From Candidatus Obscuribacterales bacterium (GTDB taxonomy: Bacteria; Cyanobacteriota; Vampirovibrionia; Obscuribacterales; Obscuribacteraceae), in assembly GCA_965228855.1 (NCBI GenBank), contig CBDDIJ010000003.1:1888001-1952000 (forward strand): a stretch of 64,000 bases of DNA, read 5' to 3'. The notes beneath the pieces are model-generated. The model ran no database searches and had not been told where the DNA came from. It was given only the letters and a program-made list of their open reading frames with translations. The position numbers and the translations under genes were made by a program. Position 1 is the stretch's first letter. Every line of letters begins with the position of its first letter. Shown here one piece after another: positions 1,094-16,277 of this stretch.

Positions 1094-4000
1094 TTGCGCA
1101 AATACAAAGAACTAGGCAATTTAATTGCGCAACTAAGGATTCGCGCCGGATATGCTCAGCAGTCAGATTTGGCGGCAATCATGAACCTGTCTCAACAGAC
1201 TGTTAGTCGTTGGGAACTCGGCGATACGCGACCTCAGCGCCAGCATCTGACATCACTAGCAAAAATTCTCAGGATAGACGAAAGTAAACTGGTTGGCGAA
1301 GCAGGATACGGCGCGGAAAACAGCCCATCAATCGCACTAGCGTCTTTTGACAATCTATTTCCAATTGATTCTCTGACCCCGGAAACTTTCGAGCGTTTCT
1401 GTCTCTATTTTTTGCAGGAGCTTTACCCTCAAGTCGCCTTTGAGAGAATGGGCAAAAGTGGCCACAGACAGGATGGCATTGACGTCTATGGACAATTCGA
1501 GGATGGCTCAAGATGGACTTTTCAGTGTAAACGCGTTGAGAAATTTGGTGCAGCGACAATCAAAAAAGTGGTTGAAGCACACAAGATGCATTCAAAACTG
1601 AACGTGCTGCTCCTGAGCAGAATAGCAAGCCCCGCTGCCCGCGAAGCGTTATCAAAGCACGCGAACTGGGAGCTCTGGGACAAAGAAAACATTACTTACA
1701 AGATTCGGCATAACCTTTCCAAACAGCAACAGTCTCGGCTTATTGACACCTTTTTCAAAGGTCAGCACATAGCTCTACTCGGGGAGCCCTACGATTCTGT
1801 CTGGCAATCAACTGAAGACTTCTATGCCCCATACGAGGACTTGAGGTCATCATTTAACCATTCATGGGAGCTAGTAGGAAGGAAAAACGATCTGGACAAG
1901 CTTCTCAACGCATTAGCACCAGAGAGAGCACCAAAGGTCATCTTGCTATCCGGCGCCGGTGGCGTCGGGAAAACTCGATTGATGAAGGAACTTGCAACAG
2001 AAATTGGAATCAAGTATCCGTCTTCGCAAATCTATTTTCTGTCAGTGTCAGAGGAGGCTAGCAGCTCTGATTTAATTACTTTGGGCGACGGAAGAAAAAT
2101 CATTTTTGTCGATGACGCTCACGACCATGAACTAACAGCCCTTTTTCACTTCGCCGCGACTTCATTAAACACGACCCTTCTCCTCTCTTGTCGCCCGTAC
2201 GCGTTGGACTCCGTTAGAGCGAAGTCCGCAGCCGCAGGTATATCTCATGAACTCATTTATGAGCATCAACTACAGCTTCTCGAATTGGAGAGTGCCGCCA
2301 AGTTATCGAAACAAGTTCTCCTCCTTCATAGCGGTCCTGTACATGCAGCCGATTCGATAGCTAGTCACACCATCGACTGCTCTTTAGCCACAGTATTAGC
2401 ATCATATGTGGTGGCAAAGGACATGCTACCGTTGGAACTCGTCAAGAACACGCGCCTCTTTCGCGACACAATGCGAGGCAAATTTATGTCCTCGCTCACC
2501 GGTGACGTAGGAACGAAAAGCGATGCACCGCTCATCAAAAAGCTTTTGACGGTCTTCGCACTAATTCAACCATTCGACGCGGGCGATGACTCTATCTCTG
2601 CACTGGTTGAAGAAGTTGAACGCATACCCATTCCCGACATTAACAGACTCACCCGAATCCTTATCACCTCTGGTTTGCTTCATAAACGAGGTAGGCAATA
2701 CCGACTCTCACCTGAGATGATTGCTGATTTTCTCATTGAAGAATCATGTGTGGGAGTCAATGGCGTCTCGACAGGATACGCGGAAAGGGTCTTTGACGCA
2801 GCAACCCGAGATTCGATTCTCGAAAACCTACTCTTTAACGTAGGGAAGCTGGACTGGAGAATGACCGACGGAAATACCTCGGACAGCAGGCTGCTAGATT
2901 ATCTATGGAAGAGATTGACTTCAAAGTATTCAGAGCCTCCGGTACGGGCGGTTACTACAGTCGCATTTTTCCAACCCCACAGAGCCGTCGAATTTGGAGA
3001 AAGTCTTCTCCGTCGCAAACGCTGTATTGAACAACTTCCCGCGTTATTTAGAAACGTAGGGCTAAACGTAAAATATCTGAGACGAGCATGCGAAGCGTTA
3101 TGGGAGATTGGAAAGAATGATGCTAGGGAGCTCAATCCACATCCGAACCATGCGATCAGAATTCTATCCGACTTAGCTTCAATTCAGTATTCATCAGACT
3201 TAAGGCTCACGAAATCGTTGGAATCAAACAGTATTGTCATAGATTTCGCTTTAGAGCTAATAGGTTCAGATTCGGCATTCGATGGTGAGTACACTCCATT
3301 CGATATTCTCCTTGGAGTGCTCAAAACAGAGGGAAGGTTCGCCACCAGCGATGGTGCCACTTGGGCGCTGACGCAATACACGGTAAATCCAACTCACACC
3401 ATCCTCTCTCTGAGAGACAAAGCCATTGACGCCGCGTTGGCGACACTTTCAGCCAGAAACTCGAAAAAAGCAATGTGTGCAGCTCGTTTTCTGCGTCACT
3501 CATTTAGACGTCCCGTTAATGGCGATTATTCTGAAGAGTGGAACCGCGATTTCGTCCGTACCTTGAACAAAATCAGCGAAGCCGTTAGTGCGAAAGTCCC
3601 CAGCCCCCAAGTATTCACTGAACTTTTGAACTCAGTACGCTGGTTCAGAGTTCACGGAAATCCTGAGCAGAAGGCGAGGGTAGAGAGTATCCACTCACTC
3701 TTTCCGGAAGCTTTGGATTATCGATGCGCGCGAGCCTTACTTTCTGGTTCAGACAACCTATTTGAAAGAAAGCAGGATGGAAACTACGGCTTGAGCTGCG
3801 GCACCCTTGCGCTTGTCGAAACGTTAAAGACTGAGTTTCCAGATGGCAATGAATTGAGAGAATTTTTGAGCGAGCAGATGAATCAGATTCGCAGAGCGCT
3901 CCCGACGAGGAGCAGCAGCGATCAGTTTTCCTTCGTTTCATCCGTCCTCAGTCGATCTGAAGGACTGGTCCGCGCCACACTAGAACATGCTCAAAGAAAT

Positions 4001-5119
4001 CATGACTTCTTCACTGAGCAGTTTGCGGGAGGGGCCTTGGCGCAGATGTTCGAGTTTGATCAAAACGCATTTCTGATTGCAAAAGCATTTGTGGAATCTG
4101 GTCGGAAAGATCTTATGTGCGCCGTGGGAGAAGCGTACACCTGGTCCAGAAACAAACGAGAGTTAGACATCCAGGATTTAGACCTATTGAAGACCCTACT
4201 TGAGACGAATGACAAAACCGTTGTTGGTACTGTTCTGAGCTGCATGCGTATGCGTGCCTTGAGTGGCGATCGAGTAGTCATCGACTTAGCCAAACATGTT
4301 GATATGAAAGAAATCGGAGATTTAGCAGCTAACTTGTTCGAAATCCTCGCAGACGAAAAGATCCTAACAAAATTCACCCCAGATGACTGCGATTACTTTC
4401 TAGAGGCCCTCTTAGAGGTTCCCGAGTTGAACAGTTATGGCGTCGAGCTGTTTTTATCATTCTTCTCTCAGCACGAAGCAGGGCGAGTTGCCAACTTCTT
4501 TATGGCTCGCGTAAACCGAGCTGTAACGGCTGAGGATTGGAACTACGACACTTGTTTCAATCCATTTACGGACAATGTGCAATTACACTTTCGCAAATCA
4601 GAAGACTTCTCTACGATAGTCCAAAAAGTTTTTGATTGGATCAAAAGCAGCCAAAATTCGATGTTCCAGTATAAGTCCGCTCAGCTTTTTGGAATGATGT
4701 TCAAACCGTTTGACGACGAGTTAGTACACTTTCTAAGTCAATGGACACTGACCAGCAAACCAGCAGATTTTCACCTTTTAGCTCAGATTCTCGCTGAAGC
4801 ACCGCGGCGGTTCGTGTTAGACAACGTGGATTTTGTAATTCAGTTTCTGGACAAGGCAAGCAGCTACGGGGAAAGTGTGGAAAAGATTGCTTTTCGATCT
4901 TTGTTTAAGTCGGCAATGAGTGGTCTTAAATCTGGAAAACTTGGAGAACCCTTTTCCAGTGACATAGAGCTGCATGTCAAAACGCAGTCTATTAGACAGC
5001 AAATTCCTAGATTCTCTTCGGCATACGAATTCTATGGCGATTTGCATAACTATGCAGCCAACGAAATCCAATCAAGTTGGAATAGAATTGACAATATCGT
5101 TTCCAGCCGAACCGACTAG
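1094..5119 (+). CDS. XRE-HTH + Mrr-like PD-(D/E)xK nuclease + STAND-type P-loop NTPase + long helical C-terminal region (putative Avs-like antiviral protein)
   Basis: N-terminal HTH (QSDLAAIMNLSQQTVSRWELG); Mrr-like motifs FERFC...QDGIDV...FQCKR; Walker A GAGGVGKT; Walker B IIFVDDAH; ~800-aa helical tail; TTG start. Confidence 0.8.
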   Translation: MRKYKELGNLIAQLRIRAGYAQQSDLAAIMNLSQQTVSRWELGDTRPQRQHLTSLAKILRIDESKLVGEAGYGAENSPSIALASFDNLFPIDSLTPETFERFCLYFLQELYPQVAFERMGKSGHRQDGIDVYGQFEDGSRWTFQCKRVEKFGAATIKKVVEAHKMHSKLNVLLLSRIASPAAREALSKHANWELWDKENITYKIRHNLSKQQQSRLIDTFFKGQHIALLGEPYDSVWQSTEDFYAPYEDLRSSFNHSWELVGRKNDLDKLLNALAPERAPKVILLSGAGGVGKTRLMKELATEIGIKYPSSQIYFLSVSEEASSSDLITLGDGRKIIFVDDAHDHELTALFHFAATSLNTTLLLSCRPYALDSVRAKSAAAGISHELIYEHQLQLLELESAAKLSKQVLLLHSGPVHAADSIASHTIDCSLATVLASYVVAKDMLPLELVKNTRLFRDTMRGKFMSSLTGDVGTKSDAPLIKKLLTVFALIQPFDAGDDSISALVEEVERIPIPDINRLTRILITSGLLHKRGRQYRLSPEMIADFLIEESCVGVNGVSTGYAERVFDAATRDSILENLLFNVGKLDWRMTDGNTSDSRLLDYLWKRLTSKYSEPPVRAVTTVAFFQPHRAVEFGESLLRRKRCIEQLPALFRNVGLNVKYLRRACEALWEIGKNDARELNPHPNHAIRILSDLASIQYSSDLRLTKSLESNSIVIDFALELIGSDSAFDGEYTPFDILLGVLKTEGRFATSDGATWALTQYTVNPTHTILSLRDKAIDAALATLSARNSKKAMCAARFLRHSFRRPVNGDYSEEWNRDFVRTLNKISEAVSAKVPSPQVFTELLNSVRWFRVHGNPEQKARVESIHSLFPEALDYRCARALLSGSDNLFERKQDGNYGLSCGTLALVETLKTEFPDGNELREFLSEQMNQIRRALPTRSSSDQFSFVSSVLSRSEGLVRATLEHAQRNHDFFTEQFAGGALAQMFEFDQNAFLIAKAFVESGRKDLMCAVGEAYTWSRNKRELDIQDLDLLKTLLETNDKTVVGTVLSCMRMRALSGDRVVIDLAKHVDMKEIGDLAANLFEILADEKILTKFTPDDCDYFLEALLEVPELNSYGVELFLSFFSQHEAGRVANFFMARVNRAVTAEDWNYDTCFNPFTDNVQLHFRKSEDFSTIVQKVFDWIKSSQNSMFQYKSAQLFGMMFKPFDDELVHFLSQWTLTSKPADFHLLAQILAEAPRRFVLDNVDFVIQFLDKASSYGESVEKIAFRSLFKSAMSGLKSGKLGEPFSSDIELHVKTQSIRQQIPRFSSAYEFYGDLHNYAANEIQSSWNRIDNIVSSRTD

Positions 5120-8858: not shown

Positions 8859-9809
8859 ATGTATAAACGACTTAGCGCATTGTTTCTTTCAGGTCTAGTC
8901 ACCGTAGCTGGTGCTTCACTCTTTTCGCTTTTCAATGCCGGCACCGCATATGGCACCACGCTTTATGCCGGCATCGAGCATGCTGACTATCTCCAACCTG
9001 TTGAAGACCAACACGCAGAAACGATGAATCAGCACTATCAATCGCAAGCGTCTCAGTACAATTTGCGGGCGCAACAGCAACAAGCACCGCAGCCTCAGTT
9101 CGAGACACCACAGGAAGGACACTACGATCAATATCACGCAGTGCCGCGGCTGACCGGTGACGCTAAATATGTTCAGAACGTTGGACCGACCGTTGAGTGG
9201 TTCATGATTCCGAAGTGGATGGCCGGCGCCTGGCAAAAGCAAGGTGACTTGACCGTCAGCTATCGAGATCTGCGCACCGGCAGATTCACCAGCATGTCAG
9301 CCTGGACACCGAATGCCATGAAAACTACCTGGGGACACCAGGTCGACCGCATGGGCAACGTCTGGCACGCCGATATCCTTCCGCTGGAAAAGGACGGCTG
9401 GTCAAAGGGAAAGCTGGCAAGGTTCATGATGACGAATTTGAACTGCGAACATTCCGATCAACGACAACTTGTGACCAGAGCCCGCTACGTTGTAACGGAA
9501 ACCTACGGCGGAACCGCTCAAGTCGCGGATCTTTTTCAGCAAGAGTCACTCAACGATTACACGTTCATGGCCGACGGCGAACTAGAGAATATGTCCTCAA
9601 ACCGCATCTATTCATCTCAGGGACAGCCGCTTCGCGAAGGTGCGCTGGTCAGCAAACTTCAGAAGGTTGGTCAGTTCGAGCCCGTTCGCTATCAAAACAG
9701 CATCGACCTTGCTCAGTCTTTGAACACCTATCTAAACACTCATGGTCTGCAGCACCTGGCCGTCTCACCTCAGACGAGCAGCCTGCAGCAAACCAATGAC
9801 CTGGACTGA
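8859..9809 (+). CDS. Secreted hypothetical protein
   Basis: 316-aa ORF with N-terminal signal peptide, Q-rich linker and globular C-terminal domain; no family recognised. Confidence 0.75.
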   Translation: MYKRLSALFLSGLVTVAGASLFSLFNAGTAYGTTLYAGIEHADYLQPVEDQHAETMNQHYQSQASQYNLRAQQQQAPQPQFETPQEGHYDQYHAVPRLTGDAKYVQNVGPTVEWFMIPKWMAGAWQKQGDLTVSYRDLRTGRFTSMSAWTPNAMKTTWGHQVDRMGNVWHADILPLEKDGWSKGKLARFMMTNLNCEHSDQRQLVTRARYVVTETYGGTAQVADLFQQESLNDYTFMADGELENMSSNRIYSSQGQPLREGALVSKLQKVGQFEPVRYQNSIDLAQSLNTYLNTHGLQHLAVSPQTSSLQQTNDLD

Positions 9810-10304: not shown

Positions 10305-13300
10305 ATGAGCAAGAAGATTGTACGGGAAACCAGCTATTTCTCACGTCGCTGGTTTGCAGTGATCGCCGCTTCGTGCGCTGCACTGGCATCAATGCAATCC
10401 GCACAGGCGTCGGAACGGCGAGAAGCCTTCCGTGATTTTCGAGACAACAATCCCGGACTTGCTCGCAACGAAGCACGCAGACTGTTCAACGAGCAATCGG
10501 GCGGCGTATTTCGTCCAATGTCCATCGAAACAGGTAGAAACGCAAACCTTCGGCACGCTATCGTGAACGAGAGTCTATCGCTCCCTCAGCTCGCGGAGCG
10601 CAACAACCGACACAACATCGAAAGCACACGCGCATTGCGAATTTCCAATCAGTCTACCCAAACGGTGGGAGTCTCGACCGTTCGTCTAAACACCGGAATT
10701 AACCTCGACCTATCCTCCACTGAGAGAAACATAACGCTTGGTCAGAAACTGTTTGAGGGTGTCGGCTCCGTTCAAATCACCGTTGGCGGTGAAACCAAGA
10801 CAGTCCAAGCAGGCTCCCAGGTAAGCGCGGCAGAGTATGTTGCGGTCAAGCAAATCCTTGGCGGCGGGTCGCAGGAAATCGGTCTGGACAATGCCGGCCG
10901 GGCTAACGGCGGTCGGTTCGACCTCGCATCGATTACAAATCCTGGCGATAAAATGCGAGCATCCAATTTTGTCCTCCCGGAGAATGTCACCACATATGGT
11001 GACTTCTCGCGTGCATCAGATATTCGTTTGACAGGTGATCTCGATAACCACGGCTCCATTTATGCGATCGCGAGCGAGAAACGCGGCCACAGCGGAACAA
11101 TCCATGCGGATGATATAACGAACCACGAGGGCGCTTTGATTTCATCCAACATCCCTCGAGATCTGGGGCGCGATCTGGGCGCACACGCAAAGCGCGTTGA
11201 TCTAGGGCTGGACGCTTCCGGCGACCTGTTGAACTATGGAACAATTTCGTCGTCCGGCAGTCTCACCCTAACCGCCGGTAGTGGCAATATAACAAACACG
11301 GGTCACGTCGAATCAACGGGCGGCGATATCACTTTTAACGGTTCAGATGCAGTTTTGACCGTTAACAACACAGGTGGAACGGTCGTTGCAAACGGCGGCG
11401 CGATTGGAATTCGTGACGCCTCTTACACGGGTGCGGCTAGCACGTATGTGAGCGGTGGAGATTTTCTCAGCCGTCAATTCAACACAAACGCCGGTCAGGG
11501 AACTACGTACGTCGATGTTAACAGCATCTCCGGACTCGTCAATCAAATCGGAAACGCAGCTCATGTCGAAGTGGCCGGCGGCAACTTAACGATAGGAGAA
11601 GTATGCCTGACAGGCGATCCTACCTATCGAAATCAGACCGGCGCAATTCAAATCACAGGCAACATAAGCGTCGCCGAGGCGCTTACGATAATTGCTAGAA
11701 ACGACATCTTTATAGACAACAACGTCATTATTTCGGCCGGAAATGCTGCTCAGGGATTCAATGTCAATCTAATCGCAGGCGCAAACATCATCGCCACGCT
11801 CGGTGGCGCAGACAGCCTCGTGCTGCCTCCATTGCCGGCAAGTTCGCAGCTGGTAACCTTTGATGGGGCATCTGTTGATGGCGGCTCGATAATCTTCGGC
11901 AGCAACACGCAGATTAATACACGCAGTACTAACATAGGCAATACCAATGGCGGCAGCGTATTGCTCGCCGCTTTTGCCGGCACCAATGGCGGTGGTGGAT
12001 TCATCGATGCATCCTCAACGACAATTTTCACAGGTGGCCGCGGAACTGGCGCAAATGGTTATGTTGATGTCATCGCAGGCGCACAGAACGGCACTGCAAT
12101 TTCGATGGGAACAATAATATCGACTGGCTCAACTGGAGGCGGAGGCGGCGTCAATATCACGACCGCGCAGCCACGCAGTACAAATGGAGATCCAGTTTCG
12201 TACGGTATTAATGGACAGTTGCTTTCAACTGACTTCATAGTTCCCGGCTTGACCGTCACTCCAACAGCATCTGTAAACCTTAAAACTATGCAGGCTTACG
12301 AGTCGATCAGCGTGAAAGCCGGAAATCTGCTTAGCACCAGCCCAGCCACTACCTTGCAAAGCACGAACGGCTCTGTCGGTTTGCAGACAGGGAACTCGAT
12401 AAATCTAGGCAGCGACATCGTCGGTAACAATGTCGTGATGATAGCCGGCAGCGACATCAATATAGCAACTCAGGTCAGCACCAGTGGCGGTGCCGGGCTG
12501 GTATTGATTCAAGCTGGAGATCAACTTTCACTTAGTGGTGTAATATCAGCGCAAAATGATGTAAGCGCTATCGCCTCCTCTATTCAACTGAGCGGCACAG
12601 GCTCAGTGGGCTCTAACAACGGCGATATAACCCTCTCATCTACAAACACGATAATTGGCGGGCTCACTACCCTGGTCAGCGCGCCAAACGGCACGATAAC
12701 CATGTCCAGCGCAGCAGGCAACATTGGAGTCAACTCCGGATTGAAGATGCGCATAGACGGTCAATCATTAAATGCGACCGCTGTTGCCGGTTCAGTATTT
12801 ATTTCTGATATCGGGGGCATCGACGTAGCCAGCGCTACAGCCTCGAATAGAGTTGAAATCTTCTCAGTTGACGGTCTTTCGAACAGCGGTCTGATTTCCG
12901 GAGACATCGTCAATCTTCAATCAACAGCTGACGCGATTACGTTGAATGCCGACGTGGTGGCAGGAACAAGCGCCACATTGAAAGCAAACACTGATTTAGT
13001 CACAGCGGCACCAGCCAGAGTAACAGCTCCTCAGCTCTATTTGAGCGCCACATCCGCAGATATAGGAGGTGGAGGTTTCGCATTGCCCTTTAGAATCAAC
13101 GCTGACAACCTCGTGGTCAGCACACCGACCGGCGGAGCAATCATAAGTGACTCCGACTCCTTAAATTTCGGCGGAGGAAGCACCTTCGTCAACACGTCCC
13201 TGATCGCAATCGCAAACGACGTGATTTCAAACACGAGCATTATCACTGGGAACAGTGTGTCTCTAGCATCGCTTAATTCAACCGTTAATGTCACCAACAC

Positions 13301-14996
13301 CATCAACGGAACAACTTCGGTAACGCTTCAGGCCAACTCGACCATTACGAACTCGAACATTTCGGCGCCTGTCAATACCGAGTTCCTTTCACTCGGATCG
13401 ACCGCTGGTGATGTGGGAACGACGTCCGCGCCGTTCGTGAGCGGAGCCTCCAGAACAGCTGCAGTCGCCTTCAATGGTGATGTCTATCTATCGCTCACGA
13501 ACAACAACGCACGTGTTTCGGGTTCCGCTTTCGGAACATTTGATGCCACCGCCAACGGTTCTCTTCAAGCCCTGAATATCAGCGGCGTCGATGTTCGTCT
13601 GCAAGCAGACGGTGCACTCACGACAGGCACTGGCAATACTGTCACCGCTACGAATCTGCAACTGGTGACCACCGGCGACGTCGGCGAAAATCTCGCAAGC
13701 GACTTCGTTATGAACGCTCAGAACGTTGATATCGCTGCTGGTGCTGCAATATTCGTTGCAAACACAAGTGCAACGCCAGTCACACTGAACAGCGCAGTCT
13801 CGACAGATACGCTTGCTTTTGCGGCTCAGAATGCCAATCTAACGAGCTCCGCCAACTTCTCGCAGAATGAAATCTACCTGCAAACTGGCGGAGTGTTTAG
13901 CCTCTCCGGCAATCTGCAAAACAATGGGGTCATCTCACTCACGTCCGCAGGTGCAATGACGAACGCGCAATTCACCGGAGCAATCTCCACCGACCGCCTC
14001 GCTCTTGAATCAACGAACAGCACGATTGGAACCAACAGCGCATCACCATTTGTTATTGCTGATGGAACAGCCAACATTATCCGCGCGAACAGCCCTGGAT
14101 TAGGTGGAATCTTTATCCAATCTCTGACCACCGATGAAATTGCGTTGACCGAAAGCAGTTCAAATCTTGATGTAAGCTTCGCTGCAGCAGGACCGCTTCG
14201 CATCATTGGCGATATCACGTCAGCAAACGGCAATGTCAACTTGTCGAACCAATCAGGCACTCTGACCGTTTCCAACGGAGTGACTATCTCAGCATTCGAC
14301 CAAATCAATTTGATCAATTCCGGGACAAATAAGAAGACTTCCAAAATTGCAATCGAAGCAGATGCCAATATCGTGACGAACGCCAAAACTGCGGGTCAGG
14401 GCAACGTCACAATCCAATTAGGAGCGCCACAAACGAAGATAGTTTCTAAACCACCGAAGAATGTAGTCTTCGTGGAAAATAATGGCGGCACAGTTGAGGT
14501 CCGAGGCAAAGGTCTCAGGGCTGCAGCGCCTGTAAACACCCTGACCGCTGACGGTGCGACCGTGTTAATAAGCAATGGCATAAACTCTAAGAACCTCACT
14601 CTAGGCGGCAATGTGCAAATTACTGCCGACCCGCAAGTTTCAGTTCCAACACAAAATATAGTCATCGTCAACACCACCACCGGCGGTGACCTATCCGCTT
14701 CGACAGAGCCCTCAGGTTCGATTATTGTAATTGGATCATCCTCATATCTTTCTGATGCAGGTTCGATCATGATCACTTCTGGCGCAAGTTTTGACTTGTC
14801 TACTTCCGTGAACCTATCAATTTCGCCAGCAGCGACGACAATATCTGGAACGAACCTCACGGTAAGCTCTCCGTCAGTCTCAGTCAGCATGCCTGAACCA
14901 ACCACCATCAACTTCGGTGTCGGACCAATCGGGAAAAATGGTATCAAGCGCGGTCAACACGCAAGACACAACAAGAGCCCCAGAAATGGGAAATAG
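10305..14996 (+). CDS. Large exported beta-helical (filamentous haemagglutinin-like) protein
   Basis: RBS AGGAG upstream, signal peptide, and 1563 aa of G/N/T/S/I/V-rich beta-strand repeats (e.g. GTISSSGSLTLTAGSGNITNTG). Confidence 0.8.
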   Translation: MSKKIVRETSYFSRRWFAVIAASCAALASMQSAQASERREAFRDFRDNNPGLARNEARRLFNEQSGGVFRPMSIETGRNANLRHAIVNESLSLPQLAERNNRHNIESTRALRISNQSTQTVGVSTVRLNTGINLDLSSTERNITLGQKLFEGVGSVQITVGGETKTVQAGSQVSAAEYVAVKQILGGGSQEIGLDNAGRANGGRFDLASITNPGDKMRASNFVLPENVTTYGDFSRASDIRLTGDLDNHGSIYAIASEKRGHSGTIHADDITNHEGALISSNIPRDLGRDLGAHAKRVDLGLDASGDLLNYGTISSSGSLTLTAGSGNITNTGHVESTGGDITFNGSDAVLTVNNTGGTVVANGGAIGIRDASYTGAASTYVSGGDFLSRQFNTNAGQGTTYVDVNSISGLVNQIGNAAHVEVAGGNLTIGEVCLTGDPTYRNQTGAIQITGNISVAEALTIIARNDIFIDNNVIISAGNAAQGFNVNLIAGANIIATLGGADSLVLPPLPASSQLVTFDGASVDGGSIIFGSNTQINTRSTNIGNTNGGSVLLAAFAGTNGGGGFIDASSTTIFTGGRGTGANGYVDVIAGAQNGTAISMGTIISTGSTGGGGGVNITTAQPRSTNGDPVSYGINGQLLSTDFIVPGLTVTPTASVNLKTMQAYESISVKAGNLLSTSPATTLQSTNGSVGLQTGNSINLGSDIVGNNVVMIAGSDINIATQVSTSGGAGLVLIQAGDQLSLSGVISAQNDVSAIASSIQLSGTGSVGSNNGDITLSSTNTIIGGLTTLVSAPNGTITMSSAAGNIGVNSGLKMRIDGQSLNATAVAGSVFISDIGGIDVASATASNRVEIFSVDGLSNSGLISGDIVNLQSTADAITLNADVVAGTSATLKANTDLVTAAPARVTAPQLYLSATSADIGGGGFALPFRINADNLVVSTPTGGAIISDSDSLNFGGGSTFVNTSLIAIANDVISNTSIITGNSVSLASLNSTVNVTNTINGTTSVTLQANSTITNSNISAPVNTEFLSLGSTAGDVGTTSAPFVSGASRTAAVAFNGDVYLSLTNNNARVSGSAFGTFDATANGSLQALNISGVDVRLQADGALTTGTGNTVTATNLQLVTTGDVGENLASDFVMNAQNVDIAAGAAIFVANTSATPVTLNSAVSTDTLAFAAQNANLTSSANFSQNEIYLQTGGVFSLSGNLQNNGVISLTSAGAMTNAQFTGAISTDRLALESTNSTIGTNSASPFVIADGTANIIRANSPGLGGIFIQSLTTDEIALTESSSNLDVSFAAAGPLRIIGDITSANGNVNLSNQSGTLTVSNGVTISAFDQINLINSGTNKKTSKIAIEADANIVTNAKTAGQGNVTIQLGAPQTKIVSKPPKNVVFVENNGGTVEVRGKGLRAAAPVNTLTADGATVLISNGINSKNLTLGGNVQITADPQVSVPTQNIVIVNTTTGGDLSASTEPSGSIIVIGSSSYLSDAGSIMITSGASFDLSTSVNLSISPAATTISGTNLTVSSPSVSVSMPEPTTINFGVGPIGKNGIKRGQHARHNKSPRNGK

Positions 14997-15059
14997 GTTT
15001 AAACGGGCACAAATCAACCTGATATATTAGATAGAGATGACTTAGAAGATGGAGCGCCT

Positions 15060-16277
15060 ATGCGAAAACGGTCACCTGGTCACCTTGCGACAGTTATAGC
15101 TTTGCTCGCAGCTTTCAGCTCCACCGCTCTATTACAGGCGGACGCGCGTCAACTTGTCACCGGCTCGCAAAACACCGAGCGCACTAATAAATTAACCGGC
15201 GAGATTCGCTGGCACCGTTCTGTCGGTCAGGCGCAGGAAGACGCCAGGCGGGAAAACAAACTCGTTTTCTGGGTCAATATGTTAGGCACGCTCTCAGGCG
15301 CCACTTGAAGCGCCGGCAATAGCCTGAGGGCCGTGAGCCTCTCACAAGAACCGGCATTCTCCTATTTGAAAAACTATTTTGTCTGTGGATTCACCGACAT
15401 AACCAATCAGGGATACGTGGGAACGTCCGGCAGGCACGAGCGCCAGGGACAGGCGACCGCCACCACGAATGGCGCCGGTCCTCACAACATTCAGATGTTC
15501 ATGCTCGCAAGCGATGGAACCGTTCTCCACTGCCTCCCCGGCTATTGGGACCCACGCGACCTCGCAAAAGAAATGCAGTTCGCATATCAACTTAACAAGG
15601 TCTACGCAGACACCACGTTGAGGCGAAGCGAGAAAGAGCAGCTGTTTAAACAGATGCAAATGAAGCATATCGAACAGCACCCTCCGCAAATGGTCAGACG
15701 CAGCCATATGCAGGGTTTCGATCAACAATACGAGGCGCATTATAAGCTAAACACATCCGACGCCATCCTCGACGCGGCGCTCGCCAAACAAGGAATGGCT
15801 GCCACCGGTCATCCGCCGGGTGAAGCGTTTAAAACCTGCGATGTGCTTATGCACGAGCGCATGGCAAAACGTCCTTTTGTCGCCTTCAGCAGATTCGACG
15901 TCGAGCGCTTCAGCGACTATGGGAAGCCGCATTACGACAAAAACGAGGACCAGATCGACGCATATTCCGGTCGCGAGGTTCGAGATCATCATGACGCTCC
16001 GACAATCGGCGACGCCAGCCAGGGTCGTCGCATGACGCAAGAGCATCAAGCGGCCAACGATGGACAGTCTCATTCAACGCAGTGGGGAGAGTCCGGTTCT
16101 TCAGCCAACGGCGGCTGGGGCGGCAATCAGACATCGCCGGCGGCAACCGGCTGGGGCGCTTCTTCCCGCGCAGCAAACACGACCTGGGGCAACAACACCA
16201 CCATGGCAGCGACTAAAGCGAAGAAACAACAGCAATCGTCTAATGTCAACACGAATTGGAACAAGAAAACTCGCTGA
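15060..16277 (+). CDS. Putative exported selenoprotein, thioredoxin-like/SELENON-like; UGA at 15306-15308 read as Sec83 (405 aa)
   Basis: ORFs 15060..15308 and 15333..16277 share one frame, separated only by TGA and 8 sense codons (...LGTLSGAT-U-SAGNSLRAVSLSQEP...). There is a signal peptide, a Trx-like start (IRWHRSVGQAQEDARRENKLVFW) and a SECIS-like hairpin right after the UGA. Confidence 0.8.
15312..15355 (+). promoter_or_regulatory. Putative bacterial SECIS element
   Basis: Lower stem GCCGG (15312-16)/CCGGC (15351-55); upper stem TGAG-GGC (15325-31)/GCC-T-CTCA (15337-44) with a bulged U; 5-nt apical loop CGUGA (15332-36) starting 23 nt after the UGA, with GU at loop positions 2-3. Confidence 0.7.

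Follow-up and report, generated by a model that had tools for sequence, protein, structure and literature searches.

The DNA analysed here, called the window, is a stretch of 64,000 nucleotides from a Candidatus Obscuribacterales bacterium (contig CBDDIJ010000003.1 of assembly GCA_965228855.1). Positions 15060-16277 of its forward strand comprise a single 405-codon frame, interrupted once by a TGA at 15306-15308 (codon 83). The frame starts with ATG at 15060, preceded at a distance of 5 nt by a ribosome-binding site, GGAG (15051-15054), and ends with a TGA at 16275-16277. Translation table 11 calls two ORFs in the same frame, one of 82 aa and one of 314 aa which begins with GTG at 15333. The first-pass annotation had considered both as one frame broken by a single TGA, and this is borne out: the two halves are in-frame in all close homologues. 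The GTG used by gene callers for the second ORF sits within the loop of an RNA hairpin. A GAGG upstream of it is spaced by merely 3 nt and is located in the stem.

A scan at the gene revealed no sigma-70-type promoter and no terminator on the plus strand. The neighbourhoods of 26 loci have no conserved functional gene context, local synteny only; an aspartate kinase is located downstream in seven of them. Directly upstream (10305-14996, plus strand) a repetitive, probably secreted β-rich protein of 1563 aa is encoded which has no Pfam match. This gene may be an insertion because close relatives carry the gene of 8859-9809 at that place. Further upstream, a 1341-aa ORF (1094-5119, plus strand) displays by eye an N-terminal helix-turn-helix, a restriction-endonuclease-like segment and a P-loop; it may code for a defence protein.

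The N-terminus of the 405-codon product is a predicted signal peptide (15060-15146) with basic residues at the start, a hydrophobic core and Ala-x-Ala at residues 27-29. The signal peptide had been proposed at first pass; of the 40 members whose N-terminus is complete, 39 have a hydrophobic 12-mer there according to a hydropathy heuristic (four short ones were skipped). We regard export of the protein as likely. A predicted thioredoxin-like domain follows (about residues 45-185; 15192-15614), with an invariant GAGP loop ahead of strand 144-149. Next is a conserved helical C-terminal domain (about residues 186-300; 15615-15959) with invariant His, Asp, Glu, Arg and Tyr residues. The end is a low-complexity tail rich in Gly, Ser and Asn with Trp-Gly units (16062-16274), which is variable, not conserved and probably disordered (pLDDT below 50 for residues 340-405).

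The AlphaFold2 model has a mean pLDDT of 81 with a confident core, most of the thioredoxin-like domain being above 90. A Foldseek search with this model had no match at E 0.001 or better, its top rows being thioredoxin-fold chains of lower significance; the helical C-terminal domain had no Foldseek match. In VIA the best match was 3f9u (Z 9.3, rmsd 2.6, 110 aligned), followed by 2lst, 4fyb, 3ira, DsbH, DsbD-gamma, AGR3 and UAS domains (2ec4, Z 6.7; 2dlx, Z 6.3). In the predicted model residue 83 opens helix 84-93 behind core strand 68-74. This is the usual active-site position in a thioredoxin fold, exactly where the first-pass annotation had suspected a redox residue. No CxxC, CxxU or UxxC motif is present at the site in 47 unique copies. 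Cys158 is found in 24 and Cys109 in 25 of 26 aligned members; H126, H203, H207, H265, D221, E225 and D261 are invariant. Searches of Pfam (at E 1 or better), NCBIfam and PDB sequences identified nothing for the protein itself. Weak matches to Pfam PF03190 and PF13899 occur in 12 and 10 of the 26 aligned members, respectively.

What is the evidence that codon 83 is read as selenocysteine (Sec)? First, the TGA is conserved. We examined 59 genome loci, duplicates included. All 58 loci of the close family have TGA at codon 83; the 59th is a distant paralogue with TGC followed by TGA. The same holds for 80 of 80 metagenome loci (the best 80 of 223; 78 unique). Removal of duplicates left 47 unique Sec copies from the genome loci. 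At the end of these genes, on the other hand, all three stop codons are used (TAG 21, TAA 20, TGA 6). Second, codons +1 to +6 behind the UGA are conserved as protein: the amino acids are invariant or nearly so while the codons vary synonymously, including AGY/TCN switches at two Ser. The site reads Thr-Sec-Ser-Ala in 47 of 47 unique copies, which confirms the Thr ahead of the Sec seen initially. All 47 have Arg at Sec+7; Asn is at Sec+4, and no Cys is located between positions -3 and +11.

Third, Cys replaces Sec in L102, L103 and P0015; the first two come from a deliberate selection of loci without a stop. In the tree these three copies stand in a starred group together with Sec copies, and the tree fixes neither the number nor the direction of the changes. 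Homologues with Cys or TGA at position 83 and conservation on both sides are what the first-pass annotation had anticipated. Out of 120 database proteins 117 begin behind the UGA, 102 of those at the GTG; of the other three, one carries Cys and two carry Trp at position 83. The latter were most likely called under another code since the matching loci, L068 and L041, have TGA. A contig from another strain spans codon 83, with no change there among the differences listed. Public RNA runs contained no usable reads across the UGA.

In some paralogues (P0193, P0176, P0178, L106) the site is occupied by Ser or a different residue, so the scaffold can be retained when the redox residue is lost. L106 (G000:C5:353500-356300, G000 being the source genome) has a Cys-Glu site, and P0176, P0178 and P0193 have no Cys at the site, which suggests that these four are non-redox paralogues. 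In two identical copies, L055 and L056, an extra in-frame TAG is located at codon 48, upstream of the Sec codon, possibly a pseudogene or an assembly error.

Downstream of the UGA is a hairpin of the bacterial SECIS type (15325-15344). Positions 15325-15331 pair with 15337-15344, the loop CGUGA occupies 15332-15336, U15340 is bulged and the predicted energy is -8.3 kcal/mol. According to the first-pass annotation the hairpin started 23 nt after the UGA. The hairpin is real, but it is the apical loop that begins at 23 nt; the stem begins after 16 nt. Likewise, the bulged U and the CGUGA loop described earlier are both present, but the bulge is on the 3' side, is clade-specific (5/47 unique genome copies, 8/78 unique metagenome copies), and most copies lack it, having a perfect 6-bp stem and a 6-nt loop. 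The hairpin fits the published consensus model for bacterial SECIS elements, which calls for a spacer of 16-37 nt and an energy of -7.5 kcal/mol or lower (PMC13188914): the loop has 5 nt with G at position 2, the spacer is 23 nt and the energy suffices. The initial assignment as a bacterial SECIS stands.

Such a fit alone is no evidence, because 208 sites in the source genome pass a loose version of the model and most of them are spurious. In single-sequence folding the hairpin is no better than shuffled sequences (z about -1.0). What goes beyond chance is the conservation. All 47 unique genome copies have a CGUG-initial loop at spacer 23, and so do 77 of the 78 unique copies from metagenomes. 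In a comparison of 39 genes under 85% identity the four four-fold sites within the hairpin are 0.87-1.0 fixed; the mean for 52 sites elsewhere is 0.48 and the maximum 0.77. One metagenome copy carries a compensatory change from A-U to C-G. The three unique Cys copies are without CGUG, two of them folding into a weaker hairpin with a G in the loop (-5.1 and -4.7). In a sister family with a Cys-Sec dyad another stem carries a CGUG loop, likewise at spacer 23; 24 of 30 loci fold in this way, and the remaining six keep the CGUG with a U-U mismatch. Across the source genome such a hairpin follows 16 UGAs at spacer 23. Only four of these UGAs are flanked on both sides by long frames, and these are the four Sec members of the superfamily in this genome. 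Judged by these comparisons, the hairpin is under selection.

The source genome has selA, selB, selD and a tRNA-Sec with a UCA anticodon, all over cut-offs. Among 151 genomes of the class the Thr-Sec family occurs in 28 and selA in 31: 27 have both, four selA only, one the family only and 119 neither; since the genomes are related, this co-occurrence does not amount to a statistical test. In G140, the genome with the family only (86% complete), selB and tRNA-Sec were identified, so each of the 28 genomes with the family shows Sec machinery as far as tested. Three genomes of the same taxonomic family without the Thr-Sec family and selA also are without selB and tRNA-Sec. In 201 sampled genomes of the phylum just three further matches appeared, weak and without a stop. 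Named relatives are nearly all from Obscuribacterales or Melainabacteria, one at 99% identity; these bacteria are kin of the cyanobacteria that do not photosynthesise. In earlier genome sets Sec use was not found in Cyanobacteria (PMC9312934, PMC1794560). The initial remark that this lineage is not associated with Sec agrees with the literature, and the genome itself has the machinery.

With a conserved UGA, Cys alternatives, a conserved hairpin and the complete machinery, the selenoprotein proposed at first pass is upheld. None of the observations that, according to the first-pass annotation, would have spoken against it was made: the Sec genes are present, the two Trp proteins were most likely called under another code and both halves share one frame in all close homologues. 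We consider Sec insertion at codon 83 very likely, as far as sequences can tell. The explanation which we favour, and hold to be likely as a whole, is that the UGA is decoded as Sec with the help of the hairpin, yielding a likely exported, predicted thioredoxin-fold protein which probably operates as a single-selenol redox enzyme of the cell envelope. Catalysis of thiol-redox reactions is the probable function, judged from the predicted fold and the position of the Sec. By analogy to the established bacterial pathway, SelB charged with Sec-tRNA would bind the loop G and insert Sec at codon 83, and the protein would then be exported. Sec83 would take the position of the nucleophile at the start of the active-site helix, a partner of the CxxU or UxxC type being absent. 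The lone selenolate might attack a disulfide or an oxidised thiol of an envelope substrate, resulting in reduction or rearrangement. Cys158, Cys109 or an outside reductant could accomplish the resolution, and the helical C-terminal domain may select the substrates.

A reading compatible with this explanation, which differs by claiming descent, is that the selenoprotein is the bacterial counterpart of animal selenoprotein N (SELENON, SEPN1) and, like the latter, reduces partner proteins within an oxidising compartment. For the Thr-Sec protein we regard this as rather unlikely. Animal SELENON is characterised by a SCUG motif with Sec462 and Gly463, by Arg466 and Arg469, an EF-hand and one membrane span (PMC12839072, PMC8967691, PMC8584023, PMC3541580). 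Both proteins have a single Sec, a thioredoxin-like domain at the outer side of a membrane, an Arg at Sec+7 and an RNA hairpin just past the UGA, termed SRE in animals. The invariant Arg corresponds to Arg469, export and fold would agree, and UAS domains are among the structural matches. Yet the first-pass label SELENON-like is not established, as the published residues match at Sec and Arg+7 only (one of five flanking residues). The Thr-Sec family has Thr-Sec-Ser and not SCUG, Asn and not Arg at Sec+4, and 405 instead of 590 residues, and its decoding signal is bacterial. An EF-hand was found neither by Pfam at E 1 or better nor in the elements of the predicted model.

In a weak search aimed at long relatives of SELENON size, none of 264 candidates qualified; even a match would have been biased because the query had been picked for its likeness to SELENON. 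Atlas searches with two natural Cys homologues retrieved unnamed bacterial clusters and weak Thioredoxin_7 leads, and no SELENON. SELENON was not among the structure matches either, which is no evidence against kinship. The available parts of four further papers (PMC5029168, PMC13578239, PMC7539508, PMC3473315) added nothing on bacterial SelN.

A different picture emerges for the sister families. The source genome contains a second Sec family, represented by L016 (G000:C3, TGA 1338742, minus strand) with a Cys-Sec dyad and a CGUG loop at spacer 23. This Cys-Sec family is about 25% identical to the Thr-Sec family; the TGA and the preceding Cys are present in 30 of 30 loci. Compared with NCBIfam the Cys-Sec paralogue reached merely 10-15 bits at cut-offs of 275-300. 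The Cys-Sec family matches the published SELENON residues at Cys461 (-1), Sec, Arg466 (+4, in most) and Arg469 (+7). A joint profile retrieved 3004 clusters at 50% identity. Among the best 150 of these, 145 fit a site motif with Arg at +4 and +7, 143 of the 145 have Cys in the Sec column, and no recognisable SELENON was present. With the Thr-Sec profile alone 114 of 154 such proteins from the wider family are detected at E 0.001 or better, and hhalign places residue 83 on the Cys of the wider family (probability 99.0, E 3e-18). L014 (G000:C5) and L015 (G000:C3) are further paralogues of the Thr-Sec type with about 50% identity, each with a UGA and a hairpin.

As the sister families match more of the published residues, any kinship to SELENON is probably via these families. 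We do not file the gene as SELENON; the Cys-Sec family appears to be the better fit. SELENON presumably has a Trp at Sec+28, and the Cys-only family has an invariant Trp at this position. A SelN-like protein from Poribacteria is reportedly the subject of a thesis. One may go a step further and tentatively propose that the Thr-Sec, the Cys-Sec and the large Cys-only families form one bacterial superfamily from which animal selenoprotein N descends, and that such envelope proteins are the main reason why Obscuribacterales have kept their machinery for Sec. We think of this as a conceivable view, on balance somewhat doubtful. Six Sec genes were found in the source genome, four of which code for members of the superfamily, likely envelope proteins. 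Its three molybdopterin oxidoreductase matches are without internal stop, i.e., no Sec formate dehydrogenase was found, and selD has no internal stop.

With respect to mechanism, the main rival to disulfide chemistry is that Sec83 binds a metal or senses oxidation without turnover of disulfides, in a site that the invariant His, Asp and Glu would complete. A lone Sec without CxxU or UxxC, the seven invariant residues listed above and a C-terminal domain without structural match would suit such a role. We judge it improbable because the Sec occupies the usual redox position of the thioredoxin fold and the neighbourhoods contain no recurring metal-related genes; in addition, thioredoxin-fold selenoproteins are mostly taken as redox enzymes (PMC13188914).

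Another alternative assumes two translationally coupled genes, in which the UGA truly terminates the first and GTG 15333 initiates the second. All 47 copies have the GTG, and the surrounding stem is likewise strongly conserved. The start assigned to most database proteins behind the UGA would fit, as would the termination at the UGA that is expected without selenium. However, the codons between the two would-be genes encode conserved residues, the break would cut a single fold at its active site, Cys copies exist as a single ORF and a genuine stop codon would be expected to change into TAA or TAG over time. On account of the conserved codons, the fold, the Cys copies and the stem we reject coupled genes as extremely improbable. 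A nonsense mutation, a sequencing error or a code with UGA as Trp has practically no chance and is refuted by conservation: both database proteins with Trp match TGA loci, the other-strain contig has no listed change at the codon, paralogues and two families share the TGA, and UGA otherwise is a normal stop which ends 482 of 1584 long frames in the source genome.

How does the favoured redox selenoprotein compare with known systems? Its decoding would be that of bacterial Sec-UGA recoding: a hairpin directly 3' of the UGA, a 5-nt loop with G at position 2, spacer and energy within the model of PMC13188914, and selA, selB, selC and selD in the genome. Different from the general case are the spacing of exactly 23 nt and the CGUG loop across two distant families, and the clade-specific bulge on the 3' side. 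With the catalogued thioredoxin-fold selenoproteins, i.e., Trx, DsbA-like, PF13098 (thiol:disulfide interchange), NF041199 (Trx7/PDZ) and NF041383 (VPGUxxT), it shares one active-site Sec and Cys homologues; it differs by Thr-Sec-Ser without CxxU or UxxC, by a longer active-site loop and by the extra helical domain. The DsbD-gamma, DsbH, Thioredoxin_7, AGR and UAS folds (3f9u, 2lst, 4fyb, 3ira, 2ju5, 3ph9, 2ec4) resemble residues of about 40-200 with Z-scores of 6.7-9.3, yet at 11-15% identity; here Sec is present, a CxxC is missing and the C-terminal domain is unmatched.

The family exceeds no curated cut-off in Pfam or NCBIfam. Table 1 of the 2026 catalogue with its 119 families, as available, lists no such family, and the accessible text has no passage on SELENON or Cyanobacteria (PMC13188914). 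The BSepDB genome table has at least 18 rows for Vampirovibrionia, none named Obscuribacter among those listed, and full-text searches of the literature turned up no description of the Thr-Sec family. By these resources the family is uncatalogued; the decoding mechanism itself is standard.

Several implications arise. Current annotation splits the family, as the 117 truncated database proteins illustrate. The gene points to Sec decoding in Obscuribacterales, although Cyanobacteria are described as lacking Sec in earlier surveys (PMC9312934, PMC1794560). Because the Sec is alone without a vicinal Cys and natural versions with Sec, Cys and Ser exist, the role of the Sec is directly testable. If homology between the sister families and selenoprotein N were demonstrated, or if the superfamily were its source, the bacterial proteins, being soluble, would give convenient access to the poorly defined chemistry of a human myopathy protein.

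Finally, the source genome holds other features of interest. L113 (G000:C2, TGA 2345996, minus strand) codes for an MsrA (PF01625, E 1e-44), a known selenoprotein family, with the UGA at the position of the catalytic Cys. L112 (629-1579, minus strand; G000:C5, TGA 1078754) encodes a predicted lipoprotein with an AhpC-TSA/redoxin domain and a UxxC motif; its hairpin has a CGUGA loop at spacer 26. The product of L112 is possibly an envelope redox partner. Two dense tRNA arrays are located at G000:C3:724518-727973 and C3:1529761-1530653 with 21 and 5 genes, respectively, the larger one with unusual anticodons, e.g., Ile-TAT and Cys-ACA.
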